From Felixounavirus LF82P2, in sequence record OZ035741.1: DNA of 64,000 nucleotides; one strand, 5' to 3'. This document shows, one piece after another, positions 31,141 through 63,585 of this stretch (position 1 is the first letter of the stretch; every line of letters starts with the position of its first letter). The notes beneath the pieces are model-generated. The model ran no database searches. It was given only the letters and a program-made list of their open reading frames with translations, and had not been told where the DNA came from. The position numbers and the translations under genes were made by a program.

Positions 31141-31411
31141 AGAAAAGTGGGAGATTTTACCATTAGTCAGTGAAGGAGGTAATGGTTGTGAAATGTACAT
31201 GATACGTGGTCATGTTCCAGAGCCAATTGCACTTGAGATGGTAAACAACTTTACAGATGGTTCTTACAAAGACTTAGGCGAACCAACTGTCAAGCAACAA
31301 TGGGTTAAACCTGTACCAGACAGCACAGGTAACTGTAGTGTACTTTATCACGTTGTAGACCCTGCAAAATGCAAATCTGCAATGGCAGTAACAAACGTAA
31401 CTTTTGATTGA
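31133..31411 (+). CDS. hypothetical protein
   Basis: 92 aa ORF. Confidence 0.35.
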   Translation: MAKEKWEILPLVSEGGNGCEMYMIRGHVPEPIALEMVNNFTDGSYKDLGEPTVKQQWVKPVPDSTGNCSVLYHVVDPAKCKSAMAVTNVTFD

Positions 31412-31422
31412 GAGAGAAAACT

Positions 31423-32304
31423 ATGAAAACATCTATCCGTGTTACAGTTCATTCACCAACTAAAGGGACTCATGAAGAAGAGTTTAACATCGTCCAATTC
31501 CCTTCTGGTGAGATTGGTGGACACTTTTCGCCAGAGTTTGTTGATTTTACTGCTTATGCAGCATCATCCATCAACAATGTGATTATGATTGTAAAAGGTT
31601 ATGACAAGGACACATTGTTTGCTGTGGCACTTGCTAAAGAAGCAATTGATGATTTAATTCCTCATGATTATGCTTTAAAGACTGTCATCTTTTACTACTT
31701 ACCAAATGCACGATATGACCGTCACATGTTTAAAGGTGACGCAGCAGCTTTAAAGGTTTTTGCTAAACAGATTAATGCAATGGGATTTGGCGCAGTCTGT
31801 GCAGTTGACCCTCACAGTTATGTACCAGATAACCTGTTTAACTGCTTCCAAAGTATTCCTCAAAAGGAGATTGCAGTCCACTATGCAAATGACCCTCTAA
31901 TTGATTACTTAGTAGCCCCAGATGCAGGTGCTGCTAAGAAGATTGCAGAGACTGCTAAAGAGGTGGATAAACCATACATCACAATGTCTAAAGTGCGTAA
32001 CCTTAAGACTGGTGAAATTACTGGTATGCGAATCCTTGATGATGTTGATTTGACAGATAAAACCGTCATGATTCTGGATGATATCTGTGATGGTGGTCGA
32101 ACCTTCATAGAAGCAGCGAAGCATCTTCGTGAAGCAGGTGCAAAACGTGTGGAACTTTATGTAACACATGGTATCTTCTCTAAAGATGTTGAAAACCTTC
32201 TTGACAATGGTATCGACCATATTTACACTACAAACTCTTTAGGCGAAGCTAAAGACCGTGGCTTAACACATTACAGTCAAGTTACTGTAGCAAACCTTGA
32301 TTGA
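31423..32304 (+). CDS. phosphoribosyltransferase-fold protein, probable ribose-phosphate pyrophosphokinase
   Basis: PRPP-binding loop VMILDDICDGGRTF; adjacent to nadV. Confidence 0.5.
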   Translation: MKTSIRVTVHSPTKGTHEEEFNIVQFPSGEIGGHFSPEFVDFTAYAASSINNVIMIVKGYDKDTLFAVALAKEAIDDLIPHDYALKTVIFYYLPNARYDRHMFKGDAAALKVFAKQINAMGFGAVCAVDPHSYVPDNLFNCFQSIPQKEIAVHYANDPLIDYLVAPDAGAAKKIAETAKEVDKPYITMSKVRNLKTGEITGMRILDDVDLTDKTVMILDDICDGGRTFIEAAKHLREAGAKRVELYVTHGIFSKDVENLLDNGIDHIYTTNSLGEAKDRGLTHYSQVTVANLD

Positions 32305-32349: not shown

Positions 32350-34131
32350 ATGACTAAATCACTTTATGCAGTACCAGCAGGTTTAAACGCAGATGCTTAC
32401 AAATCTGGTCATGTTTACCAGTACCCTAGTGCAACAGAGTACTTGATGTTCAACCTGACACCACGTAGTGACAAATGGTTTAACAGCCCCTTAGCAATTG
32501 ATGGTGTAGTAGCTTTTGGTATTCAACGTTTCGTTAAAGATTACTTGATAGACCACTGGAACGCCACTTTCTTTGAACGTGATAAAAAAGAAGCCATTGA
32601 TGAAATCTTAGAAGTCATGAATGGTGTTCTGGGTAAAGATGCTATCAGTCGAGAGCATTGGGAAGCACTTCACGACTTAGGTTATCTACCAGTTGAAGTA
32701 TACGCTGTAGAAGAAGGTACAGTTGTCCCTATGCGTGTCCCAATGATTGTTTTCCAGAACACTGTTTCAGGTTTCCATTGGGTAGCAGGTTATCTGGAAG
32801 ATGCTTTCTCTGCTGAGATTTGGAAGGCTTGTACCATTGCAACTATTGCATTGCACTACAAACGTATCTGTAAGAAGTGGGCTGACCTTACTTGTGACAA
32901 CGACTTACATTTGCCTTATCAGTGCCATGACTTTGCTATGCGTGGTATGTCCGGCTTTACTGATGACGCATTTAACGCTGTAGGCCACTTAACCAGCTTT
33001 AAAGGAACTGATAGCTTCCCTGCTGTGTATACGGCTAAACGAATCTATGGACAGTCCTACCCAATCTCTGATATTGGTAGCTCTGTACCAGCCACTGAGC
33101 ACTCTGTAATGTGTGCAAACATTGCTTGGGAAGGTGGTAATGAGTTGATTGAAGAAGAAAGACGCTTTAAAGGTGAGTTACAAACCTTCCGTCGTTTCTT
33201 AACAGAAACTTACCCAACTGGTATTGCAAGTATTGTTTCAGATACTTATAACTTCTGGAGAACTGTGTCAGAAATCTTACCAGCACTCCGTAAAGAAATT
33301 ATGGAACGTGATGGTAAACTGGTAATTCGCCCTGACTCTGGAGACCCTGTACATATTGTCACAGGTTATAAAGCAATCCACTTAGAGTGTGCTAAAAAGG
33401 CTTATTACGAGCACCTAAGCAAGCTTGAAGCCAGCGACACAATGTTGAATGCTGTTCTGAACATGAAGCTTGAAAACATCAATTATGGTATTGCTGGATG
33501 GCTACTGTCAGAAGGCTACGAAATGGTTGTTGACAGAGAAGACTTTGAAGTTGCTGATACAGTGCTGTTGAAAAATGCTTATATGGTTGGTTCTGCAAAC
33601 GTTGTAACACGTCCTGTAGCGGAGATTGATGGAGCTATCAAGACACTGTATAACATCTTTGGAGGAACTATCAACTCTAAAGGTTTTAAAGTACTGGATG
33701 AGCATATCGGGCTTATTTATGGCGACTCTATCACGCTGGAACGTGCAAACGAAATACTGAAGCGTTTGTATGAAATGGGTTTTGCAAGCTCTAACGTAGT
33801 GTTTGGTGTAGGTTCTTACACTTACCAGTACATGACTCGTGACACCTTTGCATTTGCTGTCAAAGCAACTCTTGCAAGCATTGGTGGTAAAGAGATTATG
33901 CTTGCAAAAGACCCTAAAACAGATAGTGGTGTTAAGAAATCTGCCTTTGGTGGTGTAGCACCTATGTGGGATGGTGATAAGCTGAAAGCTGTAGATGGCT
34001 ATGGATTCCAGAGTTTTGCAGATGTACTTGACCACCCAGCTTGTGCTTTACGTTTAGTCTTTAGCGACTCTGAGCAGTTTGGTTACACAACTCTTGGGGA
34101 TATTCGAAATAATATTGACAAGCAGCTTTAA
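32350..34131 (+). CDS. nadV: nicotinamide phosphoribosyltransferase
   Basis: 593 aa; N-terminal DAYKSGH..YP signature of NAMPT family. Confidence 0.7.
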   Translation: MTKSLYAVPAGLNADAYKSGHVYQYPSATEYLMFNLTPRSDKWFNSPLAIDGVVAFGIQRFVKDYLIDHWNATFFERDKKEAIDEILEVMNGVLGKDAISREHWEALHDLGYLPVEVYAVEEGTVVPMRVPMIVFQNTVSGFHWVAGYLEDAFSAEIWKACTIATIALHYKRICKKWADLTCDNDLHLPYQCHDFAMRGMSGFTDDAFNAVGHLTSFKGTDSFPAVYTAKRIYGQSYPISDIGSSVPATEHSVMCANIAWEGGNELIEEERRFKGELQTFRRFLTETYPTGIASIVSDTYNFWRTVSEILPALRKEIMERDGKLVIRPDSGDPVHIVTGYKAIHLECAKKAYYEHLSKLEASDTMLNAVLNMKLENINYGIAGWLLSEGYEMVVDREDFEVADTVLLKNAYMVGSANVVTRPVAEIDGAIKTLYNIFGGTINSKGFKVLDEHIGLIYGDSITLERANEILKRLYEMGFASSNVVFGVGSYTYQYMTRDTFAFAVKATLASIGGKEIMLAKDPKTDSGVKKSAFGGVAPMWDGDKLKAVDGYGFQSFADVLDHPACALRLVFSDSEQFGYTTLGDIRNNIDKQL

Positions 34132-38713: not shown

Positions 38714-39262
38714 ATGAAGAAATTGATTCTAGGTTTGTGCTTAATGTTTACAGCACACTTATCTTATGCAGTTGACTGCCCAGAGCTATCAATTAGCCAA
38801 AAAGTGAACATGTTAAAAGCTTACCAGTATGGCGAGAATAACATGGGTAAAGGTTGGGGTATCACTCTAGCAGCTATAGCCTTACAAGAGTCAGAGTTAG
38901 GTCTGAAGGTAGAAAATAAAAAGACACATGATTATGGTATTTTCCAGAATCACTTGAAGACTGTTGTAAAGCGTAACAAAATTAGCCCTAATGTGGCTAA
39001 AAAGAAACTCTTAAGAGACTTTGATTATGCTGCGAAGGAAACTCACAAAGAGCTTGAGTTTTGGACAAAGGTGCATGGTCAGCCAAAGTCAAAGAAGACT
39101 TTACAAAAAGTTTTAGCATCATATAATGCTGGGTATTCGTACAGAATCCCTAAAGCTAAGAAGTATTCTCAAGATGTCTATAACAACATGAAAGTAATTG
39201 CTCAATGTGAATTTGCAACAAACATTTCTAAGGTAAATCATGAAAAAATTAAGAAAGTCTGA
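38714..39262 (+). CDS. hypothetical secreted protein (possible lytic transglycosylase-like)
   Basis: Signal peptide; ALQESELGL..GIFQ weakly resembles SLT catalytic region. Confidence 0.35.
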   Translation: MKKLILGLCLMFTAHLSYAVDCPELSISQKVNMLKAYQYGENNMGKGWGITLAAIALQESELGLKVENKKTHDYGIFQNHLKTVVKRNKISPNVAKKKLLRDFDYAAKETHKELEFWTKVHGQPKSKKTLQKVLASYNAGYSYRIPKAKKYSQDVYNNMKVIAQCEFATNISKVNHEKIKKV

Positions 39263-39935
39263 TGAAGTACTGTGTCATGCTTATGACTTACATCCTCATG
39301 AGTTAGGTCTTGATTCCTGTGTATGGTCTCCAGAACAGTGTAGGGATTTTGAAGACACTGCAAGAGAAGTTGTATGTTCACTTGAAGAGTTCCACACATC
39401 AGAACCAATTGTGAACGTTGTGGACAAAGAGACTGGACAATCTATAGGAGTAAGTCGTGATAGCTTAGTCATAGTCAATAAAGACCTTGTAGAAAAAGGG
39501 AATCTCATCTTAGCAGATATTGATGGTGTTCTTACAAATTTTAATCACGAAGATTGTTCAACGGAATTGACTGATGGGTCATTCTCACAGTACACTAATC
39601 TTCTTGATTCTGTAAGAGCAAAACCAACGTATGTTTTTAGTATTATTGATGCAATTGCTAATCATGCTGCCATTGGACTCTTGACAGCGAGAGGTGAATC
39701 TCAGAGAATACCTACTGAGATGTTTTTAAGGCATAACATAGAGCATGACTACATGCTTTTTATGCGTGGTTTTGGAACTAACTCTATAAGTGCAGAAAGT
39801 TTGAAAGTGAGGATGATTCAGTCTTGCATCCTGCCTTACTTTAATATAGTATGTTTTATAGAAGACACAGAGAAGAATGTGCAGAAGGTGAACAGAATCC
39901 TTCCACACATTAAAACCATGTTAGTTAAACATTGA
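39240..39935 (+). CDS. hypothetical protein
   Basis: 231 aa ORF. Confidence 0.4.
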   Translation: MKKLRKSDEVLCHAYDLHPHELGLDSCVWSPEQCRDFEDTAREVVCSLEEFHTSEPIVNVVDKETGQSIGVSRDSLVIVNKDLVEKGNLILADIDGVLTNFNHEDCSTELTDGSFSQYTNLLDSVRAKPTYVFSIIDAIANHAAIGLLTARGESQRIPTEMFLRHNIEHDYMLFMRGFGTNSISAESLKVRMIQSCILPYFNIVCFIEDTEKNVQKVNRILPHIKTMLVKH

Positions 39936-40420: not shown

Positions 40421-40450
40421 CAGGCTCCTTCGGGAGCCTTTTTCATTTTA
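40421..40450 (+). terminator. rho-independent terminator
   Basis: CAGGCTCC-TTCG-GGAGCCT followed by TTTTCATTTT. Confidence 0.45.
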
Positions 40451-40462
40451 GGAGATTGTTAA

Positions 40463-40810
40463 ATGACATTTAAAGAGTTCTGTCAAGCTACTTTCATAAT
40501 TGTTTTCTTAGTTGGTGCAGGTGTCTGGGGAGGATACTCTTACAGAGACTATCAAGTTGCTGAAACTGAGCTAAATAATGAGAAACTAATAAGTGTTGCT
40601 AAAGATGCTTATCAGGAAGGTTTAGCCACACTCAGCACCAATTACAAAAATGATTTGAAAGATGTGCTTGCTAAGAATAAGCATACAAAAGAGGTACTAA
40701 CATATGAAAAAACTAAGCCAGAGTTTTATAATGTTTGTGTTACTGATAACTATGTCAGGGTGTTCAACGAACAAAGTGAGCAGTACATTCAAAAACTCCC
40801 AAGTAAGTGA
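40463..40810 (+). CDS. i-spanin-like protein (putative)
   Basis: N-terminal TM helix then helical periplasmic-type domain; 3' end overlaps lipoprotein ORF in another frame. Confidence 0.35.
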   Translation: MTFKEFCQATFIIVFLVGAGVWGGYSYRDYQVAETELNNEKLISVAKDAYQEGLATLSTNYKNDLKDVLAKNKHTKEVLTYEKTKPEFYNVCVTDNYVRVFNEQSEQYIQKLPSK

Positions 40811-40973
40811 GGGTGATAAGTACACCCAAGAAGAATCACGGTATATCATCAAAGGCAACACAGGCAGCGATGTAGCAGCAGCCCTTGAGTTCTATCGTGA
40901 CGGCTTTTACCAGTGCACAATCAAAGCTAACAACCTTATTGACATGATTTTATTAGGGAATAAGCAGCAATGA
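40704..40973 (+). CDS. o-spanin-like lipoprotein (putative)
   Basis: Signal peptide with lipobox LITMSGC; embedded/overlapping with preceding TM protein gene. Confidence 0.35.
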   Translation: MKKLSQSFIMFVLLITMSGCSTNKVSSTFKNSQVSEGDKYTQEESRYIIKGNTGSDVAAALEFYRDGFYQCTIKANNLIDMILLGNKQQ

Positions 40974-41568: not shown

Positions 41569-41770
41569 AAAGACACGAAAACTTATAAGGTCAGCAGTAT
41601 TCATTGGACGAAATGAGGTCATCCCATTTACAGCAAATGATGTGATAGCTTACAGGAAGAACTTAGTATTCACTGACTGCTTACGTGGCTTCATCTCTGA
41701 ACCATTGGAAGACTTTAAAAGTCGTTGTGGTAAAGGTATCATCATTCAAGAGGCAATTATTCATGGCTGA
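41543..41770 (+). CDS. hypothetical protein
   Basis: 75 aa ORF. Confidence 0.3.
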   Translation: MKVILARDKKTRKLIRSAVFIGRNEVIPFTANDVIAYRKNLVFTDCLRGFISEPLEDFKSRCGKGIIIQEAIIHG

Positions 41771-41963
41771 CTTCTGTAAAGACTGTTCTATCGAAATGTT
41801 CGGACGTGATACAGGTGACTTAAAAGGTCTTATCACTGAAGATGATTTTAAAGCTGGTTATGCAATGCCAGTAATCTGTGAAGGTTGTGGGTGCATCTGG
41901 GTAGACCATGAGGGGCAACGTGTAAAACCTTCAGAAGATAAAGAATCTTGGGAGAGATGCTAA
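41763..41963 (+). CDS. hypothetical Cys-rich small protein
   Basis: CKDCS ... CEGCGC cysteine pairs; start moved to internal ATG. Confidence 0.3.
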   Translation: MADFCKDCSIEMFGRDTGDLKGLITEDDFKAGYAMPVICEGCGCIWVDHEGQRVKPSEDKESWERC

Positions 41964-42749
41964 ATGGGTATTGTAAAAATCATCAATGGTGATATCTTTG
42001 CTGCATTTGATAAAGGTAAGTTTGACATCATTGGTCATGGTTGTAACTGCATGAACCTAATGGGCGCAGGTATCGCTGACAAGATTTCTAAACTTTACCC
42101 AAAAGCATATGAGACCGATACAGAAGTTTATCTCTATGCAGGTGGTATAGGTCACAAACCCTGTGAGAATTTACTAGGTAATTTCTCTGTAGCACGCTTA
42201 AAACAAGGTCGTATAGCTAACCTTTACACTCAGCTTAAGACTGGTAAAGATGCCCGATACAGTGCTTTAGAGTCATCTTTGAAACAGCTTAACAGATACT
42301 GTGAAGTTAATCAGTTGAAGAAAGTTGGTTTACCTATGATTGGTGCAGGTATCGGTGGACTTGACCCTCAAGCCATCACAGTTATCATCAATCAGGTGAT
42401 GAAGAGTGTAGATGTTTATCTGTATGTCTATGAAGGCGAGATGTACCACAAGTTACGCTCAGGTTGGAAGAACTACTGTGAACCAGAATACTTTGCAGGT
42501 GTAGCAGTGTTCACAGATAACGCAGTTACCCTCTTCAGACGAAGAAAAGGTAAGATACATCAAAGTAACCCTCCGGTTGAAAAGATGTCTCTAAGTAACG
42601 CTCTAGTTACCCACCTGTCAAAGAGCAATCACAGAATTGCTGTAACATTTGGTAGTGATGCAGAAGCTTATATCTATGCAAGAACTGATGAGGATATCGA
42701 GGCAATCTTCTCTTCACCAGAAGTTACCTTCTTAGACGCAAAGAACTAA
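41964..42749 (+). CDS. macro-domain protein (ADP-ribose binding/processing)
   Basis: N-terminal IINGDIF..GHGCNCMNLMGAGIA resembles macro-domain core. Confidence 0.45.
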   Translation: MGIVKIINGDIFAAFDKGKFDIIGHGCNCMNLMGAGIADKISKLYPKAYETDTEVYLYAGGIGHKPCENLLGNFSVARLKQGRIANLYTQLKTGKDARYSALESSLKQLNRYCEVNQLKKVGLPMIGAGIGGLDPQAITVIINQVMKSVDVYLYVYEGEMYHKLRSGWKNYCEPEYFAGVAVFTDNAVTLFRRRKGKIHQSNPPVEKMSLSNALVTHLSKSNHRIAVTFGSDAEAYIYARTDEDIEAIFSSPEVTFLDAKN

Positions 42750-42817
42750 GAAACTCTGTAGGATATTCACAATAGCCTAAGCCTTTCTTATCTGGTAAAT
42801 TTTTCAGGTAAGGAGGG

Positions 42818-43000
42818 CTTTTTCATTTTAGAATTGTGCAGGTAGAGTTCTGTAGAGAAATCTGTAGAGAGAATTTTGAACTCCAAAGAGAAAATTCATT
42901 TTCAAACTGTGCAGGTAATCTCCAAAGAGCTTTTTCATTTTCAAAACGTGCAGACCCCGCTCAGGTCGGGCAAGAAAAATCATTTTAGAATTGTGCAGGT
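42818..43000. repeat. four direct repeats of ~25 bp (TTTTCATTTTAGAATTGTGCAGGTA consensus)
   Basis: Copies at about 42818, 42893, 42931, 42975, irregular spacing; followed by C-rich tract 43021-43056. Confidence 0.6.
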
Positions 43001-43179
43001 AGGTTTTTATAGACAGCCAGCCCAACCCCTCTCCCCCTCTTACTCCCCCTCTCCCCAAAAGTCAAGAGAAAAATTTGTAGCGGATTGAAAAATAATTCTT
43101 GATTTGCGTTCTGTTTTGTGGTAGTCGTGCGCACCCGTTTCATTACAGTTTTGCCAAAAATATTTTTAAAATTTTTATT

Positions 43180-58171: not shown

Positions 58172-58248
58172 AAAAGTTTATCTCTGTTTAGCTCAGCTTG
58201 GTAGAGCGTTCCGTTTGGGGCGGTAAGGCCGGAGGTTCAAGTCCTCCA
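58172..58248 (+). tRNA. tRNA-Pro (anticodon TGG)
   Basis: 7 bp acceptor stem, T-loop GGTTCAAGTCC, anticodon loop TTTGGGG, encoded CCA. Confidence 0.7.
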
Positions 58249-58265
58249 ACAGAGACCAAATTAAT

Positions 58266-58343
58266 GTTCCAGTAGACAAAATGGTATAGTCACCACTCTT
58301 TCAAAGTGGACATCTGAGGGTTCAAATCCCTTCTGGAACGCCA
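58266..58343 (+). tRNA. tRNA-Glu (anticodon TTC)
   Basis: Acceptor GTTCCAG/CTGGAAC, anticodon stem CCACT/AGTGG, loop CTTTCAA. Confidence 0.65.
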
Positions 58344-58434
58344 GTTTTGACAGAAGACCAAATACAGCAAACTTAATCTTATTCATCTGAAGGTAAATCG
58401 GACAAAGAAGAGATTTGGTCTGGTCATTAAGAAT

Positions 58435-58511
58435 TGCGGGTATAGAGAAAGGGCGTCTCACATGTCTCATTAGCATGGTATCGGCAGGTTCGACTCCTGC
58501 ACCCGCCTCCA
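58435..58511 (+). tRNA. tRNA-Met (anticodon CAT), atypical (T at position 37, mismatch at pair 1-72)
   Basis: Anticodon stem CATGT/GCATG, loop CTCATTA, T-loop GGTTCGACTCC. Confidence 0.5.
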
Positions 58512-58594
58512 AATTTACAGAAGACCGTTTACAGCAACATTTATTAAATTTTTAGCGGAAAAATTGAAAGATACGGTCTGGTAATACTAAACAT

Positions 58595-58671
58595 GGTTAG
58601 GAAGCACATAAGGTATGTGCGGTCGCCTGTTAAGCGAATGGCACAGGGTTCGAATCCCTGACTAACCGCCA
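58595..58671 (+). tRNA. tRNA-Asn (anticodon GTT)
   Basis: Anticodon loop CTGTTAA; T-loop GGGTTCGAATCCC; CCA encoded. Confidence 0.65.
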
Positions 58672-58740
58672 AATTTAGGAGAGAAGCGATTGCTCACCGA
58701 TTTGTAAGGTGCAAGTCCTTAGCCTGAATAGAAATTAAAT

Positions 58741-58828
58741 GTGTCGTTATCCCGTAGATGGTAGCGGTGGGGACTGTAAATCCCTTGTCATTGAGACTCG
58801 GTAGGTTCGACTCCTACACGGCACACCA
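58741..58828 (+). tRNA. tRNA-Tyr (anticodon GTA), long variable arm
   Basis: Acceptor GTGTCGT/ACGGCAC, anticodon stem GGGGA/TCCCT loop CTGTAAA, 88 nt. Confidence 0.7.
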
Positions 58829-58833
58829 ATAAA

Positions 58834-58911
58834 GGTTATGTAGTTTAATTTGGTTAAAATACTCCCCTGTCACGGGAGATGATGAGGGTTCAAATCCCTT
58901 CGTAACCGCCA
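58834..58911 (+). tRNA. tRNA-Asp (anticodon GTC)
   Basis: Acceptor GGTTATG/CGTAACC, anticodon stem CTCCC/GGGAG loop CTGTCAC. Confidence 0.7.
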
Positions 58912-59081
58912 ATTTTGAGAGGGCTATTTAGCCCCTCCCTTAAAGGGTTCTTACGAGTATCCTTTAAAGGAGCAGAAGACCAAATACAGCAAGTTACTTA
59001 AAATTTCAAGCCAATTTAATTTTGAAAAATTTAAAACTTGGTCTGGCTCAACAAATTTACAGAAGACCGTTTACAGCAAAA

Positions 59082-59178
59082 CTTAAACAATCTATTTCTC
59101 GGTAAAGAAAAGGCGAAGGTTCGATTCCTTCACTCGGCAGATGTCGAGTTGGTGTAATGGTAGCACTTAAGATGATAA
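59082..59178 (+). pseudogene. tRNA halves in permuted order (3' half upstream of 5' half); possible circularly permuted tRNA or rearranged pseudogene
   Basis: 3' part 59082-59139 (CTTAA, variable-arm hairpin, T-arm GAAGG-TTCGATT-CCTTC, acceptor ACTCGGC) then 5' part 59143-59178 (acceptor GTCGAGT, D-arm, TTAAG, loop ATGATAA). Confidence 0.35.
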
Positions 59179-59339
59179 ACAACGGTCTGGTAATTATCTT
59201 TGTAGATAAGTTATTAAGCTTACCTGTGAGTATGCGACCACAAAGGGTGAAAGGGTAAATTCTAGATTTAAACCCAAAAAGGCACATCGCTACAGACCTT
59301 AAGCAAGTCTGGGTAGCTTATCTACAAAGATAATTTAAT

Positions 59340-59415
59340 GGAAGTGTAGCAGAATGGTGATGCGGCAGACTTTTAATCTGACAGGCGATGGGTTCGAATC
59401 CCTCCACTTCTACCA
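59340..59415 (+). tRNA. tRNA-Lys (anticodon TTT)
   Basis: Acceptor GGAAGTG/CACTTCT, anticodon loop CTTTTAA, T-loop GGGTTCGAATCCC. Confidence 0.65.
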
Positions 59416-59419
59416 ATAT

Positions 59420-59496
59420 GGTTCAGTCGCAGATAAGGTAATGCAAGGGTCTCATAAGCCCTATGAATGTGGGTTCGAATCCCATCTGAACCTCCA
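59420..59496 (+). tRNA. tRNA-Met (anticodon CAT), GGG/CCC anticodon stem (initiator-like feature)
   Basis: Anticodon arm AGGGT-CTCATAA-GCCCT; acceptor GGTTCAG/CTGAACC fully paired. Confidence 0.65.
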
Positions 59497-59498
59497 AT

Positions 59499-59573
59499 TG
59501 TGGGTTAGCATAAATGGTAATGCAAACGGCTGATAACCGTTAGAAGAGGGTTCGATACCCTCACCTACAACCA
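59499..59573 (+). tRNA. tRNA-Ile (anticodon GAT)
   Basis: Anticodon arm AACGG-CTGATAA-CCGTT; T-loop GGGTTCGATACCC. Confidence 0.7.
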
Positions 59574-59591
59574 AGTTCAATAAAGTTGTTG

Positions 59592-59620
59592 ACATTGAGA
59601 TGTGACTACTTTATAGTAAC
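59592..59620 (+). promoter_or_regulatory. sigma70-like promoter inside tRNA cluster (TTGACA-17-TATAGT)
   Basis: Consensus -35 and good -10 in spacer after tRNA-Ile. Confidence 0.45.
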
Positions 59621-59821
59621 CTTAGTTTTCGTTGCGTAGCGTCTATTTTGCAAATTTAAAATAAATGCAAACGACAATGTTTTTCTGGCAGTAGCTTGAT
59701 AGGCTAAACACCAGTGAGGTCTTCCAATCCCTCATCAAAGAATTTGGCGTACTCGCCCACGGTATGATTAATAAGGTGGGCATCTTTAAGGGCTTTCTAA
59801 GAGAGTCTTTAAAGATAATTA

Positions 59822-59903
59822 CGGGGCGTATCTCAGCGGTCTTCTAAACCGCCGTTAACCGAGTAAGTGGAGTATGCGGGTTCGAGTCCTGCCGCCTCGA
59901 CCA
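59822..59903 (+). tRNA. atypical tRNA-like gene (possible Arg, anticodon TCT), non-canonical arm arrangement
   Basis: Acceptor CGGGGCG/CGCCTCG plus T-arm GCGGG-TTCGAGT-CCTGC and CCA; perfect hairpin GCGGT-CTTCTAA-ACCGC sits where the D-arm should be. Confidence 0.4.
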
Positions 59904-60046
59904 ATTTAGTTAGCAGATTACTTAGACGACCTAAGCGGGTCTTCCTGTAGGGAGGTGGTCTGTATCTCATGTTTTCCAGAACATGTAAATAATCTGAGAA
60001 GGGGCTTTACAGTGTTGAGATAATACGGTAAGCTTCGAATTATAGT

Positions 60047-60129
60047 ATGGGACGATGTTAAGACTCTAAGGCATGAGCAACGGCCTCCAAAACCGTTTCA
60101 AAGGGGTTCAACTCCTCCGTCCCATGCCA
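60047..60129 (+). tRNA. tRNA-Trp (anticodon CCA), enlarged D region (83 nt)
   Basis: Perfect acceptor ATGGGAC/GTCCCAT, anticodon arm ACGGC-CTCCAAA-ACCGT, T-loop GGGGTTCAACTCC. Confidence 0.5.
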
Positions 60130-60142
60130 AAGTCTTATTAGG

Positions 60143-60230
60143 GGTAGGTAGCGGCTAATGGCAGCCAAACAGTCTTGAAAACTGTTGCCACTGTAGAGAT
60201 ACGGTGAGGGTTCGACTCCTTTACTTACCG
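60143..60230 (+). tRNA. tRNA-Ser (anticodon TGA), long variable arm, CCA not encoded
   Basis: Anticodon arm ACAGT-CTTGAAA-ACTGT; long variable arm; T-loop GGGTTCGACTCC. Confidence 0.65.
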
Positions 60231-60488
60231 CCTAATAAGATTTTTAAAGCCAAGCTTCATTCGGATGTTGCTTTGGTATCCCTCGTGTATTGTCGTACAC
60301 ACTGATAAAACACCTAGTAGGTGTCACGGAGAAGAGATAATATCAAGCTCTCCAAAGGTTCTAGTCACCGGATTAAACAAGACTATGCAAAGACCTTTTA
60401 GGTCTTTTTAGAGGGCTTCTAAGGTTATTACAGCTTGTTGTGGAACCTTGTTGCTTAGGTTCTTAGAAGTTCTCTAAAAAGATTTAAT

Positions 60489-60566
60489 GGGAGATTGACG
60501 GTAATTGGTAAACCTATCTCGCTTAGAACGAGATGTTTGAGGGTTCGAATCCCTTGTCTCCTACCA
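60489..60566 (+). tRNA. tRNA-Leu (anticodon TAG) with short variable loop
   Basis: Anticodon arm TCTCG-CTTAGAA-CGAGA perfect; discriminator A; T-loop GGGTTCGAATCCC. Confidence 0.55.
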
Positions 60567-60573
60567 AATTAAT

Positions 60574-60649
60574 GCAGGTGTAGCAAAATGGTTATGCGGC
60601 TGACTCTTAATCAGTAAGACGATGGGTTCAATTCCCTCCACCTGTACCA
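60574..60649 (+). tRNA. tRNA-Lys (anticodon CTT)
   Basis: Scaffold similar to tRNA-Lys(TTT); anticodon arm GCTGA-CTCTTAA-TCAGT. Confidence 0.55.
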
Positions 60650-60655
60650 AACAAT

Positions 60656-60731
60656 GGGGTCATAGTTTATATGGTTAAAATTCGAGTTTTGCAAACTTGG
60701 GAACTGAGTTCAATTCTCAGTGACTCCACCA
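60656..60731 (+). tRNA. tRNA-Ala (anticodon TGC)
   Basis: Acceptor GGGGTCA/TGACTCC with G3-T70 wobble; anticodon loop TTTGCAA. Confidence 0.65.
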
Positions 60732-60737
60732 ATTAGT

Positions 60738-60812
60738 GCATCCATAGTTTAAACGGGAAAATTACAGTCTTCCAAACTGAGGTTGAGGGTTCGATTCCCT
60801 CTGGATGCTCCA
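60738..60812 (+). tRNA. tRNA-Gly (anticodon TCC)
   Basis: Acceptor GCATCCA/TGGATGC; anticodon arm ACAGT-CTTCCAA-ACTGA. Confidence 0.65.
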
Positions 60813-60826
60813 AATTAAGGTGTGAT

Positions 60827-61240
60827 ATGAAAATATGCAGTACTTGCAGAATACCAAAAGATGAAAGCTTATTCCATAAGAATAAGAACAAGAAAGACGG
60901 TCTTCAAAGTCAATGCAAAGATTGTGCAAGACTCCGTGATGCAAAGAGTTATCAAGCAAATGATAAAAGGAAAGAGGCTATTAAAAGCACTCGTAACTTC
61001 AAGAGAGAGCATAACAAGACTCTAGCTAGAAGGTACAAAGCTTTATGCAAATGTCATATATGTGGTGAGAAAGAACCAGTTGCACTGGATTTACACCATA
61101 CAGACCCTTCCCAGAAAGATTTGAATCCTGCATCACTTTATTCATACTCCACAAAAAGATTAAAAGATGAAATCAGAAAGTGCATTGTCTTGTGCGCTAA
61201 CTGTCACAGAAAAGTACATGCTGGTATCATAAAAGTTTAA
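60827..61240 (+). CDS. HNH endonuclease embedded in tRNA cluster
   Basis: Cys-rich N-terminus and C-terminal DLHHTD..CANCHRKVH HNH motif. Confidence 0.6.
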   Translation: MKICSTCRIPKDESLFHKNKNKKDGLQSQCKDCARLRDAKSYQANDKRKEAIKSTRNFKREHNKTLARRYKALCKCHICGEKEPVALDLHHTDPSQKDLNPASLYSYSTKRLKDEIRKCIVLCANCHRKVHAGIIKV

Positions 61241-61241
61241 T

Positions 61242-61318
61242 GCTGCTTTCGTATAATTGGCTATTACACATCCCTTGTAAGGATGGAAATGCAGGTTCGA
61301 GTCCTGTGAGCAGCACCA
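61242..61318 (+). tRNA. tRNA-Thr (anticodon TGT)
   Basis: Anticodon arm CATCC-CTTGTAA-GGATG; T-loop GGTTCGAGTCC. Confidence 0.7.
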
Positions 61319-61413
61319 ATTCAGAGGTCAAGTGAAAGACCGCTGGTGTCAACTGAAGACCGTAACAAATTCCACGGAGTTGAGTTAGCGGCACAACTTC
61401 AGACCTCTTTCAT

Positions 61414-61488
61414 ACTCGCTTAGTTTATATGGTAAAACATCACCCTTACAAGATGAAGAAAAAGGTTCAAGTCCTTTAGTGAGTACCA
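61414..61488 (+). tRNA. tRNA-Val (anticodon TAC), one mismatch in anticodon stem
   Basis: Acceptor ACTCGCT/AGTGAGT; anticodon arm TCACC-CTTACAA-GATGA (C-A mismatch). Confidence 0.5.
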
Positions 61489-61489
61489 T

Positions 61490-61567
61490 GTTCCAGTATC
61501 CCAATTGGCAGAGGATGCAAGCTCAAACCTTGTACTAGTGACGGTTCGAATCCGTCTTGGAACACCA
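61490..61567 (+). tRNA. tRNA-Leu (anticodon CAA) with short variable loop
   Basis: Anticodon arm GCAAG-CTCAAAC-CTTGT; discriminator A; T-loop GGTTCGAATCC. Confidence 0.55.
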
Positions 61568-61572
61568 ATTTT

Positions 61573-61648
61573 GCAGGATTAGTTCAAATGGATAGAGCAA
61601 CAGTCTACGAAGCTGTTAATAGGGGTTCGAATCCCTTATCCTGCGCCA
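61573..61648 (+). tRNA. tRNA-Arg (anticodon ACG)
   Basis: Acceptor GCAGGAT/ATCCTGC; anticodon arm ACAGT-CTACGAA-GCTGT. Confidence 0.7.
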
Positions 61649-61667
61649 ATTTAAAGAGGCTATTTAG

Positions 61668-62225
61668 ATGAGATATTTGAAGTATGCTTCATGGATTTTC
61701 TTAGCTTTGTTAGAACCATTTGCAGCAATCTTAGCAGTTATCTTAGCACCTTTTGTAGTTCCATTTTACAGTGAGAAGAAAGGACACTTACCTTTCGGAT
61801 TTAGATGGATGGAAACTTATGACAACCCAATTGATGGTGATGAAGGTCACGTTAAAAGATGGGCTAATATTAGATGGATTGGTAAGCTTGGTGTCTATAT
61901 GCAGAGAGTCGGTTGGCTCTGGAGAAACAAAGCTTATAACTTCTCTTACCATGTGTTAGGAAGAGATGTAAAAGATGTTACTAAGTGGAAAGGTAATATC
62001 AACGTAAGTTCTAACCCTGAAGATAATCAGACAGGTTATCTCCTAATGTGGAACAGCAATGCTTGGGGATTATTCGCTTTTATACCATCAATTAAAATCT
62101 TTGGTAAACAGTTCTACTGGAGAATTTATATTGGGTGGAAGCTAAAAAGTGTTGTCCCAGAAGAAAGAGCATTCTCAAGGGAAAGAGTTATGTTGGCATT
62201 CTTTATTCATCCACTAAGAAATTAA
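61668..62225 (+). CDS. hypothetical membrane protein embedded in tRNA cluster
   Basis: 185 aa; hydrophobic N-terminal segment, Trp-rich. Confidence 0.4.
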   Translation: MRYLKYASWIFLALLEPFAAILAVILAPFVVPFYSEKKGHLPFGFRWMETYDNPIDGDEGHVKRWANIRWIGKLGVYMQRVGWLWRNKAYNFSYHVLGRDVKDVTKWKGNINVSSNPEDNQTGYLLMWNSNAWGLFAFIPSIKIFGKQFYWRIYIGWKLKSVVPEERAFSRERVMLAFFIHPLRN

Positions 62226-62233
62226 AGATTTAA

Positions 62234-62309
62234 AGGGGATTAGTTTACAAGGTTAAAACCTCGGTCTTTGAAATCGAAGAAGTTGGTTCAATTCCAACAT
62301 CCCCCGCCA
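62234..62309 (+). tRNA. tRNA-Gln (anticodon TTG)
   Basis: Anticodon arm TCGGT-CTTTGAA-ATCGA; T-loop GGTTCAATTCC; pair 1-72 mismatched. Confidence 0.6.
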
Positions 62310-62311
62310 AT

Positions 62312-62390
62312 GCTCCATTACTCCAATTGGCAGAGAGGCCAGACTTAAAATCTGTGTTATGTATCGGTTCGAATCCGATATGGAGTACCA
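62312..62390 (+). tRNA. tRNA-Leu (anticodon TAA) with intermediate-length variable region
   Basis: Anticodon loop CTTAAAA; discriminator A; D region similar to tRNA at 61490. Confidence 0.5.
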
Positions 62391-62395
62391 AATTT

Positions 62396-62471
62396 AGCGG
62401 TATAGCATAACTGGCAATGCAACAGTCTCTGAAGCTGTCTTATTAAGGTTCAAATCCTTATGCCGCTGCCA
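62396..62471 (+). tRNA. tRNA-Gln (anticodon CTG)
   Basis: Anticodon arm ACAGT-CTCTGAA-GCTGT; T-loop GGTTCAAATCC. Confidence 0.55.
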
Positions 62472-62502
62472 CTTCTAAGGGTTCTTACGAGAGTCCTTAA
62501 AT

Positions 62503-62578
62503 GTGGCCTTATCATAAATGGTAATGACCCATGCTGTGAACATGGTCTATACGGGTTCAAATCCCGTAGGTCACCCCA
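62503..62578 (+). tRNA. tRNA-His (anticodon GTG)
   Basis: Anticodon arm CCATG-CTGTGAA-CATGG; discriminator C. Confidence 0.7.
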
Positions 62579-62583
62579 ATTTA

Positions 62584-62660
62584 TAGTCCAAGTAGCTTAT
62601 ATGGTTAAAGCGCGTGTCTGAAAAACATGAGAAGAGGGTTCAAATCCCACTGGACTACCA
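62584..62660 (+). tRNA. tRNA-Phe (anticodon GAA)
   Basis: Acceptor TAGTCCA/TGGACTA; anticodon loop CTGAAAA. Confidence 0.6.
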
Positions 62661-62676
62661 ATTTCAAAGGTGCTTA

Positions 62677-63411
62677 ATGAAAGAGATGACAGAACAAGGT
62701 AAGGAGATTTTTAATCTCTTAAAAACCGGTAAAGGGTTTTCTAACCCACTTATTACTGGTGCAGCAGTTCTCGGTGGAACCGTAGCTGCTTCTACATCAC
62801 TTGTAAGCTCTATTAGTTCTGTAACAGACCCTACAATGCAGGAGAAACTTGTTGCTGCTGGACTTACAACAGTCCTTCTAAACAGCTTTACAACAAGCCT
62901 TACAAGCACTACAGCAACTACTAAGACCCTGACAGACTACGGTCAAAAATCTATTGATGAGTTTTCATCACGTATGCAGGTAGCAAAGGGATATTCCAAT
63001 GTTATGGGTGCAGCAGGAGAACAAGTTGGTTGTACACCGTTCAGTGGTATTATGGGTGTTGCTACAGAATATGGTCAAAAAGCTATTGATACGATTAACA
63101 GTACACTAGAGAGTGTTAACAATGTATTAAGTGACTTACAAGACGCTATTGACAAGGGTCTTGATACTGTTTCTGATTTAGCTAACCAAGCTGTCAGTAA
63201 GATTAATGAAGGTATCTCAAAGATTACAGCTTATGCAGATGAAGTTGTGCAGATGATTGAAGAAGAATCTGCCCTTATTGCAGAGTACCTTAAAACGAAT
63301 ATCAATGGGTTCTTAGCAGGTATCTTACCAGACTGGTTTGATGATGCCTGTAAAACTGGTGTAATTGACACTATTGCAACACCAGAAATGAAGAACGCAT
63401 TACAGAAATAA
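62677..63411 (+). CDS. hypothetical protein embedded in tRNA cluster
   Basis: Track ORF 62614-63411 overlaps tRNA-Phe; start moved to ATG 62677 after AAAGG RBS; Thr/Ser-rich then helical. Confidence 0.45.
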   Translation: MKEMTEQGKEIFNLLKTGKGFSNPLITGAAVLGGTVAASTSLVSSISSVTDPTMQEKLVAAGLTTVLLNSFTTSLTSTTATTKTLTDYGQKSIDEFSSRMQVAKGYSNVMGAAGEQVGCTPFSGIMGVATEYGQKAIDTINSTLESVNNVLSDLQDAIDKGLDTVSDLANQAVSKINEGISKITAYADEVVQMIEEESALIAEYLKTNINGFLAGILPDWFDDACKTGVIDTIATPEMKNALQK

Positions 63412-63412
63412 T

Positions 63413-63505
63413 GGAAGATTAACCCTAAAAGGTAAGGGAGCAGTTTGCTAAACTGACAGTAGCTGAGAAATCGGTGTACCAGTTCAAGTCTGGTATCTTC
63501 CTCCA
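63413..63505 (+). tRNA. tRNA-Ser (anticodon GCT), long variable arm
   Basis: Perfect acceptor GGAAGAT/ATCTTCC; anticodon loop TTGCTAA; 93 nt. Confidence 0.65.
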
Positions 63506-63509
63506 ATTT

Positions 63510-63585
63510 GAATCCGTGACAGAAATGGCTATGTGCCTGTCTGCAAAACAGGTTTATAAGGGTTCGAGTCCCTTCGGATTCTCCA
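63510..63585 (+). tRNA. tRNA-Cys (anticodon GCA)
   Basis: Acceptor GAATCCG/CGGATTC; anticodon arm CCTGT-CTGCAAA-ACAGG. Confidence 0.7.

Follow-up and report, generated by a model that had tools for sequence, protein, structure and literature searches.

We examined the gene at 41964..42749 (+) of a 64,000-nucleotide stretch of Felixounavirus LF82P2 (OZ035741.1; hereafter the window), and concluded that its product, a two-domain protein of 261 residues, is very probably a counter-defence enzyme with ADP-ribose C1'' hydrolase activity. We infer both its substrate and its more specific role, and tentatively favour that of an AdfM-type anti-DarT2 ADP-ribose hydrolase. The open reading frame (ORF), which starts with ATG, is present exactly as claimed in an earlier note on this DNA, and the glycine-rich motif quoted there corresponds to residues 24-38.

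In the model that we propose, the N-terminal macrodomain would bind ADP-ribose and hydrolyse the group attached at C1'' of the distal ribose. Catalysis would resemble that of SCO6735, relying on His25, Asn28, Gln90 and an activated water in place of the lysine used by TARG1 and DarG. The likeliest physiological substrate would be the ADP-ribosyl-thymidine (dT-ADPr) that DarT2 toxins put on phage single-stranded DNA, and, in the manner of T4 Tk.4, a homologue, the protein would act as an 'orphan antitoxin'. The ADP-ribose released could then feed the phage's own NARP1 pathway as a substrate. The founding example of NARP1 is the pair of genes 79-80 of the Felixounavirus Bas63, encoding Adps and Namat, by which NAD+ is rebuilt from ADP-ribose and nicotinamide.

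The macrodomain and its active site

By sequence, the closest functionally studied relative of the protein is T4 Tk.4, with 35% identity over about 155-160 residues of the macrodomain (tblastn E 7e-16, 82.8 bits), a score above that to Adpp of Vibrio phage Gary. The HGCNC, NLYTQ and IGAGIG motif types are common to Tk.4 and the protein studied here, both have a glutamine in place of the DarG lysine, and Tk.4 is likewise the product of a lytic coliphage gene. In a transposon screen, tk.4 was the single T4 gene that turned conditionally essential in the face of DarTG2 (bioRxiv 10.1101/2025.11.20.689424). A clean tk.4 deletion sensitised T4 to DarTG2, and the protein was named AdfM, for anti-DarT factor Macrodomain (HIDEN-SEQ preprint, bioRxiv 10.1101/2025.11.20.689424). 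The suggestion of the earlier note that a phage macrodomain could reverse ADP-ribosylation-based defence thus has, by analogy, a precedent in a phage homologue. Tk.4 differs in being a single-domain protein of 155 residues, whereas the protein from LF82P2 carries an additional C-terminal domain of 104 residues, and in being encoded in the vs/tk region of a phage without NARP1, in contrast to the rII/polynucleotide kinase (PNK)/spanin region here.

An ALC1-like macrodomain of the TARG1-DarG-Poa1p-SCO6735 type was assigned to residues 1-157 (41964..42434, +) from profiles and predicted structure, and this call was confirmed to be far beyond chance. Pfam PF01661 (Macro) matched residues 25-138 (E 3.9e-7; 30.5 bits against a gathering cut-off of 22), and the phrog_335 profile matched with an E-value of 5.5e-113. 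The AlphaFold2 model of the full protein, computed from an alignment with 28 homologues, had a mean predicted local distance difference test score (pLDDT) of 92.4 and a predicted template-modelling score (pTM) of 0.90, and we are confident that the three-layer alpha/beta/alpha macro fold predicted by this model is present. Foldseek with the model retrieved TARG1, DarG, Poa1p and viral macrodomains with E-values of 5e-9 to 2e-7 (about 1e-8 for TARG1, DarG and Poa1p) and target-normalised template-modelling (TM) scores of 0.7-0.84; the scores reached 0.80-0.84 for TARG1 and 0.74 for Poa1p (root-mean-square deviation 2.6 A), and the TM score for DarG was about 0.8. By sequence, the nearest solved structures were TARG1 (E 1.4e-5), coronavirus Mac1 (8e-4), DarG (1e-3) and Poa1p (0.013, over 40 residues), and MacroD-like PDB chains scored more weakly than TARG1 in the same type of search. 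Human TARG1/OARD1 was therefore the best solved-structure match by sequence and by fold, and yeast Poa1p was matched by fold, with marginal sequence similarity. The top NCBIfam and PADLOC match of the protein was DarG, covering the macro part alone; the DarG equivalog NF048014 scored 46.8 bits, far below its cut-off of 250, with profile positions 4-154 of 338 aligned.

The check proposed in the earlier note, by profile and structure prediction, thus returned a macro fold and not a non-macro one. The macro core that the note had placed in the N-terminal 120 residues was correctly recognised as such, but its extent was underestimated, as the domain covers residues 1 to about 157, with the second loop at 126-132, and the C-terminal domain was overlooked.

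The alignment placed the first Gly-rich loop, GHGCNCMNLMGAGIA, at residues 24-38 (42033..42077, +), with invariant His25 and Asn28, the invariant NLYTQ at residues 86-90 (42219..42233, +), and the second Gly-rich, diphosphate-binding loop, PMIGAGIGG, at residues 124-132 (42333..42359, +). Among the 28 homologues, invariant positions include His25, Gly26, Asn28, Cys29, Gly36, Asn86, Leu87, Thr89, Gln90, Pro124, Gly127 and Gly129, and in the glycine motifs MGAGIA (residues 33-38) and IGAGIGG (residues 126-132), which hold Gly36, Gly127 and Gly129, Gly34 is nearly so. Residue 39 is Asp in this protein and variable in the family (D, A, Q, R, G, K, V, T, L, Y or P in alignment A1). At the His25 position, the two-domain Kolesnikvirus orthologue of Erwinia phage vEam_W_28 (L006 9998-10780) has Gln, and all other family members examined have His; vEam_W_28 keeps a Nampt-like NARP1 gene upstream of its macro gene.

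In the profile alignment, Gln90 occupies the position of the TARG1 catalytic Lys84, and a glycine of the 124-132 loop occupies that of TARG1 Asp125. Alignment to two DarG structures likewise set Gln90 opposite the catalytic Lys80 (NLYTQLKT vs. NFPTKKHW in DarG) and His25 opposite Asn. Because Gln90 stands at the Lys position and Gly at that of Asp125, the TARG1/DarG chemistry is absent, and a DarG/TARG1-type mechanism was rejected. The MacroD-type motif N-x6-GG[VLI]-D, with its conserved catalytic Asp (YmdB or 'RNase III inhibitor', O-acetyl-ADP-ribose deacetylase), was not found either, the loop of the protein reading N28-x5-GAGIA and the Asp at residue 39 varying within the family.

His25 aligns with H24 of both Gary Adpp and SCO6735, Asn28 with N27 of SCO6735 and N22 of DarG, and Gln90 with Gln85 of SCO6735. 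The His/Asn/Gln trio is therefore present in SCO6735 (His24, Asn27, Gln85), and it is also found in Gary Adpp and T4 Tk.4. SCO6735 of Streptomyces coelicolor (PDB 5e3b) is ALC1-like and, like the phage protein, does not have the TARG1/DarG lysine; it hydrolyses dT-ADPr on DNA, protects against DarT and is inactive as Q85A (PMC9411070). This is a precedent for the action of a His/Asn/Gln site on dT-ADPr DNA, which favours an AdfM-type role. SCO6735 differs in being a bacterial, single-domain protein, and its similarity was insignificant in a single-sequence search (E 0.65), so that the family profile A1 was needed to detect it (E 1.9e-15). The notion that the glutamine excludes anti-DarT activity was considered and dropped, as SCO6735 and T4 Tk.4 carry the same Gln. 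The AdfM of a chimallivirus, PhiKZ gp104, is a Lys-type macrodomain and was shown biochemically (PMC13309987).

The C-terminal domain and the macro family

Residues 158-261 (42435..42746, +) were predicted to form a separate domain, in which a helix precedes six or seven beta strands and another helix ends the chain; its pLDDT was about 90 in the full AlphaFold2 model and 79 when modelled alone. This is an orphan, fast-evolving domain with relatives detectable solely within Ounavirinae. No Pfam family matched it, phmmer, run exhaustively against 1.8 billion representatives, returned close orthologues alone, and a profile built from 13 diverse C-terminal domains retrieved no further relatives. 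Foldseek found nothing significant in the PDB (best E 0.21, weakly PH-like), and the sole match in BFVD was the SUSP2 orthologue. There was no match to DarG profiles, and charge and isoelectric point revealed neither an acidic nor a basic character consistent among orthologues. The domain is missing from the closer macro-only relatives, from T4 Tk.4 and from all Adpps.

In Ounavirinae proteins with a macrodomain 37-52% identical to that of this protein, identity of the C-terminal domain is no more than 15-23%. Divergence of the C-terminal domain thus outpaces that of the macrodomain, which is the pattern expected of a partner-binding module in an arms race. We infer that it serves to bind a partner that varies, which may be a toxin or a partner for targeting; a share in catalysis is unlikely. 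In DarG, too, an N-terminal macrodomain is followed by an extra domain, which there binds DarT, and this layout favours an AdfM-type role. DarG of DarTG2, which the protein resembles in macro fold, in profile match and in layout, differs in having Lys80 where the protein has Gln and Asn where it has His25, and in its unrelated C-terminal domain. It is also distinguished by its gene context, as no darT lies adjacent to the macro gene, the neighbours of which are spanins and small ORFs of unknown function.

Members of the macro family occur in 2,849 of 50,697 phage records, vs. 1,249 records with Adps; among Escherichia phages the figures are 1,000 (T4 included) and 178, respectively. In a neighbour-joining tree of 35 macrodomains, the two-domain proteins of Ounavirinae formed a clade with 97% bootstrap support, the backbone had bootstraps of 1-32%, and NARP1-linked macrodomains were scattered. 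Two macro-only relatives, P0025 (L008 8001-8492) and P0024 (L007 8001-8468), have different surroundings: one lies directly 3' of rIIA/rIIB-like genes amid DNA polymerase, ligase and helicase genes, and the other, on a contig of about 87 kb, lies near a reverse transcriptase and HATPase pair. Both are remote from NARP1 genes, and this position of the nearest macro-only relatives favours an AdfM-type role. In the metagenomic protein P0026 (339 aa), the macrodomain is fused to a PF20274 cREC_REC cyclic-phosphate-processing receiver domain, which hints that some family members handle small molecules of the ADPR>P or ADP-ribose-1''-phosphate (ADPR-1''P) type.

The 786-bp gene is 100% identical to its counterparts in Felixounavirus LF110P1 and LF82P5, and about 200 phage records contain it at 90% nucleotide identity or more. 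These records label it 'putative phosphatase' or 'hypothetical protein', and one GenBank record has 'O-acetyl-ADP-ribose deacetylase'. The macrodomain identity is thus already reflected in public annotations, and phage macrodomain counter-defence enzymes were reported in 2025-26. What distinguishes the present protein is its orphan C-terminal domain and its residence, without operon linkage, in the genus in which NARP1 was discovered. We found no paper connecting Felixounavirus with a macrodomain; DarTG and aRES were not among the defences of the Bas63 PhageMaP screen, in which the macro gene was not discussed.

Roles related and unrelated to NARP1

The earlier note had also described an NAD-salvage pair in this phage, consisting of nadV and a PRPP-synthetase-like gene. 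The gene pair is present, but it is NARP1 and not classical nadV/PRPP salvage. Adps, a Prs-like ADP-ribose (ADPR) pyrophosphokinase of 298 aa (31408..32304, +), lies 9.7 kb upstream of the macro gene, and Namat, a Nampt-like nicotinamide ADPR-transferase of 593 aa (32350..34131, +), ends 7.8 kb upstream of it. Connecting the macro gene with these NAD genes was apt, although the distance of 7.8 kb and a different predicted transcription unit place it outside their operon. It is at least 13 ORFs downstream of NARP1, past rIIA, rIIB, a PNK-like gene (39240-39935, phrog_3970, 2 kb upstream of the macro gene), the spanins and a terminator-like hairpin. The block running from NARP1 through rIIA, rIIB and PNK to the two-domain macro gene is kept in Kolesnikvirus and in three metagenomic relatives with Ounavirinae gene order, whose proteins are 33-41% identical to this one, and in all of the divergent Ounavirinae contigs that we examined, a single 10-kb block holds both NARP1 and the macro gene.

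This setting raises the main alternative, rather unlikely in our estimation, that the macrodomain is an ADPR-1''P phosphatase which turns the aRES product into ADP-ribose for NARP1, the gene being a third, 'NARP1-AP' gene displaced by 7.8 kb. According to Osterman et al., 15% of NARP1 operons contain a Poa1p-like macro gene, Adpp (bioRxiv 10.64898/2026.01.28.702374). Gary Adpp (KNV71_gp137) acts on ADPR-1''P, which the RES-domain NAD+ phosphorylases (aRES) produce, and turns it into ADPR, from which NARP1 rebuilds NAD+, and its H24A mutant loses the anti-aRES function (bioRxiv 10.64898/2026.01.28.702374). By analogy, this phage homologue is a precedent for the processing of NAD-derived metabolites that the earlier note had also considered. 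It is homologous over the full macrodomain (27% identity, E 2e-13), has the N-x-Y-x-Q motif, comes from a phage that encodes NARP1, and has its mutation-sensitive His at the position of His25. Other NARP1-adjacent macrodomains are 30-34% identical (E 1e-21, 75-82 bits), HGCNC/YTQ-type macrodomains adjoining NARP1 are known in Acinetobacter and Aeromonas phages, and aRES is present in E. coli (bioRxiv 10.64898/2026.01.28.702374). Gary Adpp also has the same ranking of PDB matches as our protein (TARG1 ahead of SCO6735, then DarG, then Poa1p); the ranking therefore cannot separate AdfM from Adpp, and DarG-like matches are no argument against Adpp. The published Adpp survey covered no more than two genes on each side of NARP1, and its table contains no Escherichia or Salmonella phage; a gene placed like this one would have escaped it. 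Against the phosphatase, the family is defined by a position within two genes of Adps/Namat, and the macro gene lies outside the NARP1 operon. NARP1 is present in the genome, its discovery was made in a member of the genus (Bas63), and it co-occurs with the two-domain macro gene in Ounavirinae contigs in similar record numbers (252 for Adps and 243 for the macro gene at 60% identity or more); however, both are core genes of one phage lineage, and the similar counts are explained by shared ancestry and not by independent association. Most macro-family members occur in phages without Adps. The Kolesnikvirus orthologue has Gln instead of the His required in Adpp even though NARP1 is kept, and DarG has Asn there, which favours an AdfM-type role. 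Furthermore, an additional fast-evolving domain would be superfluous in a metabolic phosphatase, and Adpps are operon-linked single-domain proteins of about 150-170 aa without the C-terminal domain, most of them with HQxNC, YGQ and GCGLAG variants of the motifs.

Substrates other than DarT2-modified DNA and ADPR-1''P appear quite unlikely. The protein could remove ADP-ribose from other macromolecules, such as RNA (CmdTAC-type) or proteins, or degrade O-acetyl-ADP-ribose, Thoeris-type cyclic ADPR signals or other soluble derivatives. Macrodomains of this class are promiscuous, as SCO6735 also acts on a protein substrate (PMC9411070) and TARG1 hydrolyses both protein-linked ADP-ribose and O-acetyl-ADP-ribose, and a comparative survey argued that phage macrodomains target mainly soluble ADP-ribose derivatives (PMC9503650). 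On the other hand, no homologue in the phage macro family is linked to RNA, protein, O-acetyl-ADP-ribose or cyclic ADPR substrates, and the TARG1 dyad for ADP-ribose on protein Glu/Asp is missing. The deacetylase name given in one GenBank record agrees with such a role, but GenBank names are transferred by similarity. RNA-repair housekeeping, in which a Poa1p-like activity would clear ADPR-1''P or ADPR>P from the 2'-phosphotransferase step during repair of tRNAs cut by host anticodon nucleases, is very improbable. The structural likeness to Poa1p, the PNK-like gene 2 kb upstream, the 25 tRNA genes in the window, the cREC_REC fusion of P0026 and the 'slight' structural similarity of Bas63 gp107 to RNA 2'-phosphotransferase noted in PhageMaP are in keeping with it. 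Against this, no Tpt1/KptA, 2H phosphoesterase or RNA ligase was detected among the 17 neighbouring ORFs scanned, ADPR>P is not a product of T4-type PNK/ligase repair, and the Poa1p sequence similarity is marginal (E 0.013 over 40 residues). A non-catalytic reader or sponge of ADP-ribose with the C-terminal domain as effector is extremely unlikely; some macrodomains are known to bind ADP-ribose without further action (PMC9503650), yet His25, Asn28 and Gln90, catalytic in SCO6735 and Adpp, are invariant in the 28 aligned homologues together with the Gly loops, the one exception being the Gln for His25 in the Kolesnikvirus orthologue, which was examined separately from that alignment.

The AdfM-type anti-DarT2 role has to be held against several points of its own. 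The evidence for T4 AdfM is genetic and does not consist of in vitro DNA de-ADP-ribosylation by a Gln-type phage macrodomain. NARP1-linked macrodomains score about like Tk.4 (Bobbio 82 bits, JG004 75 bits), and, with backbone bootstraps of 1-32%, the tree does not establish Tk.4 as an orthologue. The C-terminal domain resembles that of DarG neither in sequence nor in fold, and its charge is inconsistent. In addition, predicted co-transcription with spanins is not what one would readily expect of an early anti-defence gene. The anti-DarT2 and Adpp reactions both break the C1'' bond of ADP-ribose, so that one enzyme might do both. An improbable extension is a dual role, in which the macrodomain would strip ADP-ribose from DarT2-modified DNA and also dephosphorylate ADPR-1''P, the ADP-ribose going to NARP1, and the C-terminal domain would bind and block a toxin (DarT2 or aRES) in the manner of the unrelated one of DarG, making the protein a convergently built orphan antitoxin.

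Transcription unit and significance

A Shine-Dalgarno-like GGGAGAG (41950..41956, +) is located 7 nt 5' of the ATG of the macro gene, and the TAA of the preceding ORF (41961-41963) ends one base before that ATG. As this stop abuts the start of the macro gene, translational coupling is suggested. The small ORF concerned (41763-41963) encodes 66 aa with two CxxC pairs (CKDC...CEGC), is zinc-ribbon-like and belongs to phrog_2210, a family of unknown function. A small ORF likewise ends at the macro start in the relatives L002-L004, the likeness being one of arrangement. An intrinsic-terminator-like hairpin of 17 pairs followed by a T run (42779..42820, +) begins 30 nt past the stop of the macro gene, and another terminator-like hairpin (40422..40439, +) precedes the unit. 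These hairpins bracket one predicted transcription unit, composed of a spanin pair, four small ORFs without known function and the macro gene. The spanin pair (40463-40973) consists of an Rz-like ORF (40463-40810), overlapped in a different frame by a lipoprotein ORF (40704-40973) that contains a lipobox-like sequence, LITMSGC. The combination of lysis (spanin) genes and a putative counter-defence gene in one terminator-bracketed unit is an odd mix.

The 520-bp non-coding gap 3' of the macro gene contains four copies of a 34-nt direct repeat (42808-43013), three of which have the exact core TCATTTTNNAANTGTGCAGGTA in common. The repeat motif is absent elsewhere in the window, with 0 occurrences expected by chance, and the set may be a regulatory array. 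At the far end of the window, a cluster of 25 tRNA genes (58182-63585) includes two each for Met, Lys, Gln and Ser and three for Leu.

Felix O1-like phages have found wide use in biocontrol and therapy of Salmonella and E. coli. If the macro gene encodes an anti-DarT2 factor, is a hidden third NARP1 gene, or both, part of the resistance of these phages to ADP-ribose- and NAD+-based immunity would be explained; the host-takeover role also mentioned in the earlier note received no support. If the gene belongs to NARP1, surveys based on operon adjacency undercount NARP1-AP. A dual role, if true, would couple damage reversal, enzyme inhibition and NAD+ recycling in one gene. If either role or both apply, these phages would also provide a natural setting in which to test whether a single Gln-type macrodomain can act in DNA repair as well as in the recycling of metabolites. 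In its orphan C-terminal domain, the protein offers, in addition, a candidate for a new toxin-binding or targeting module.

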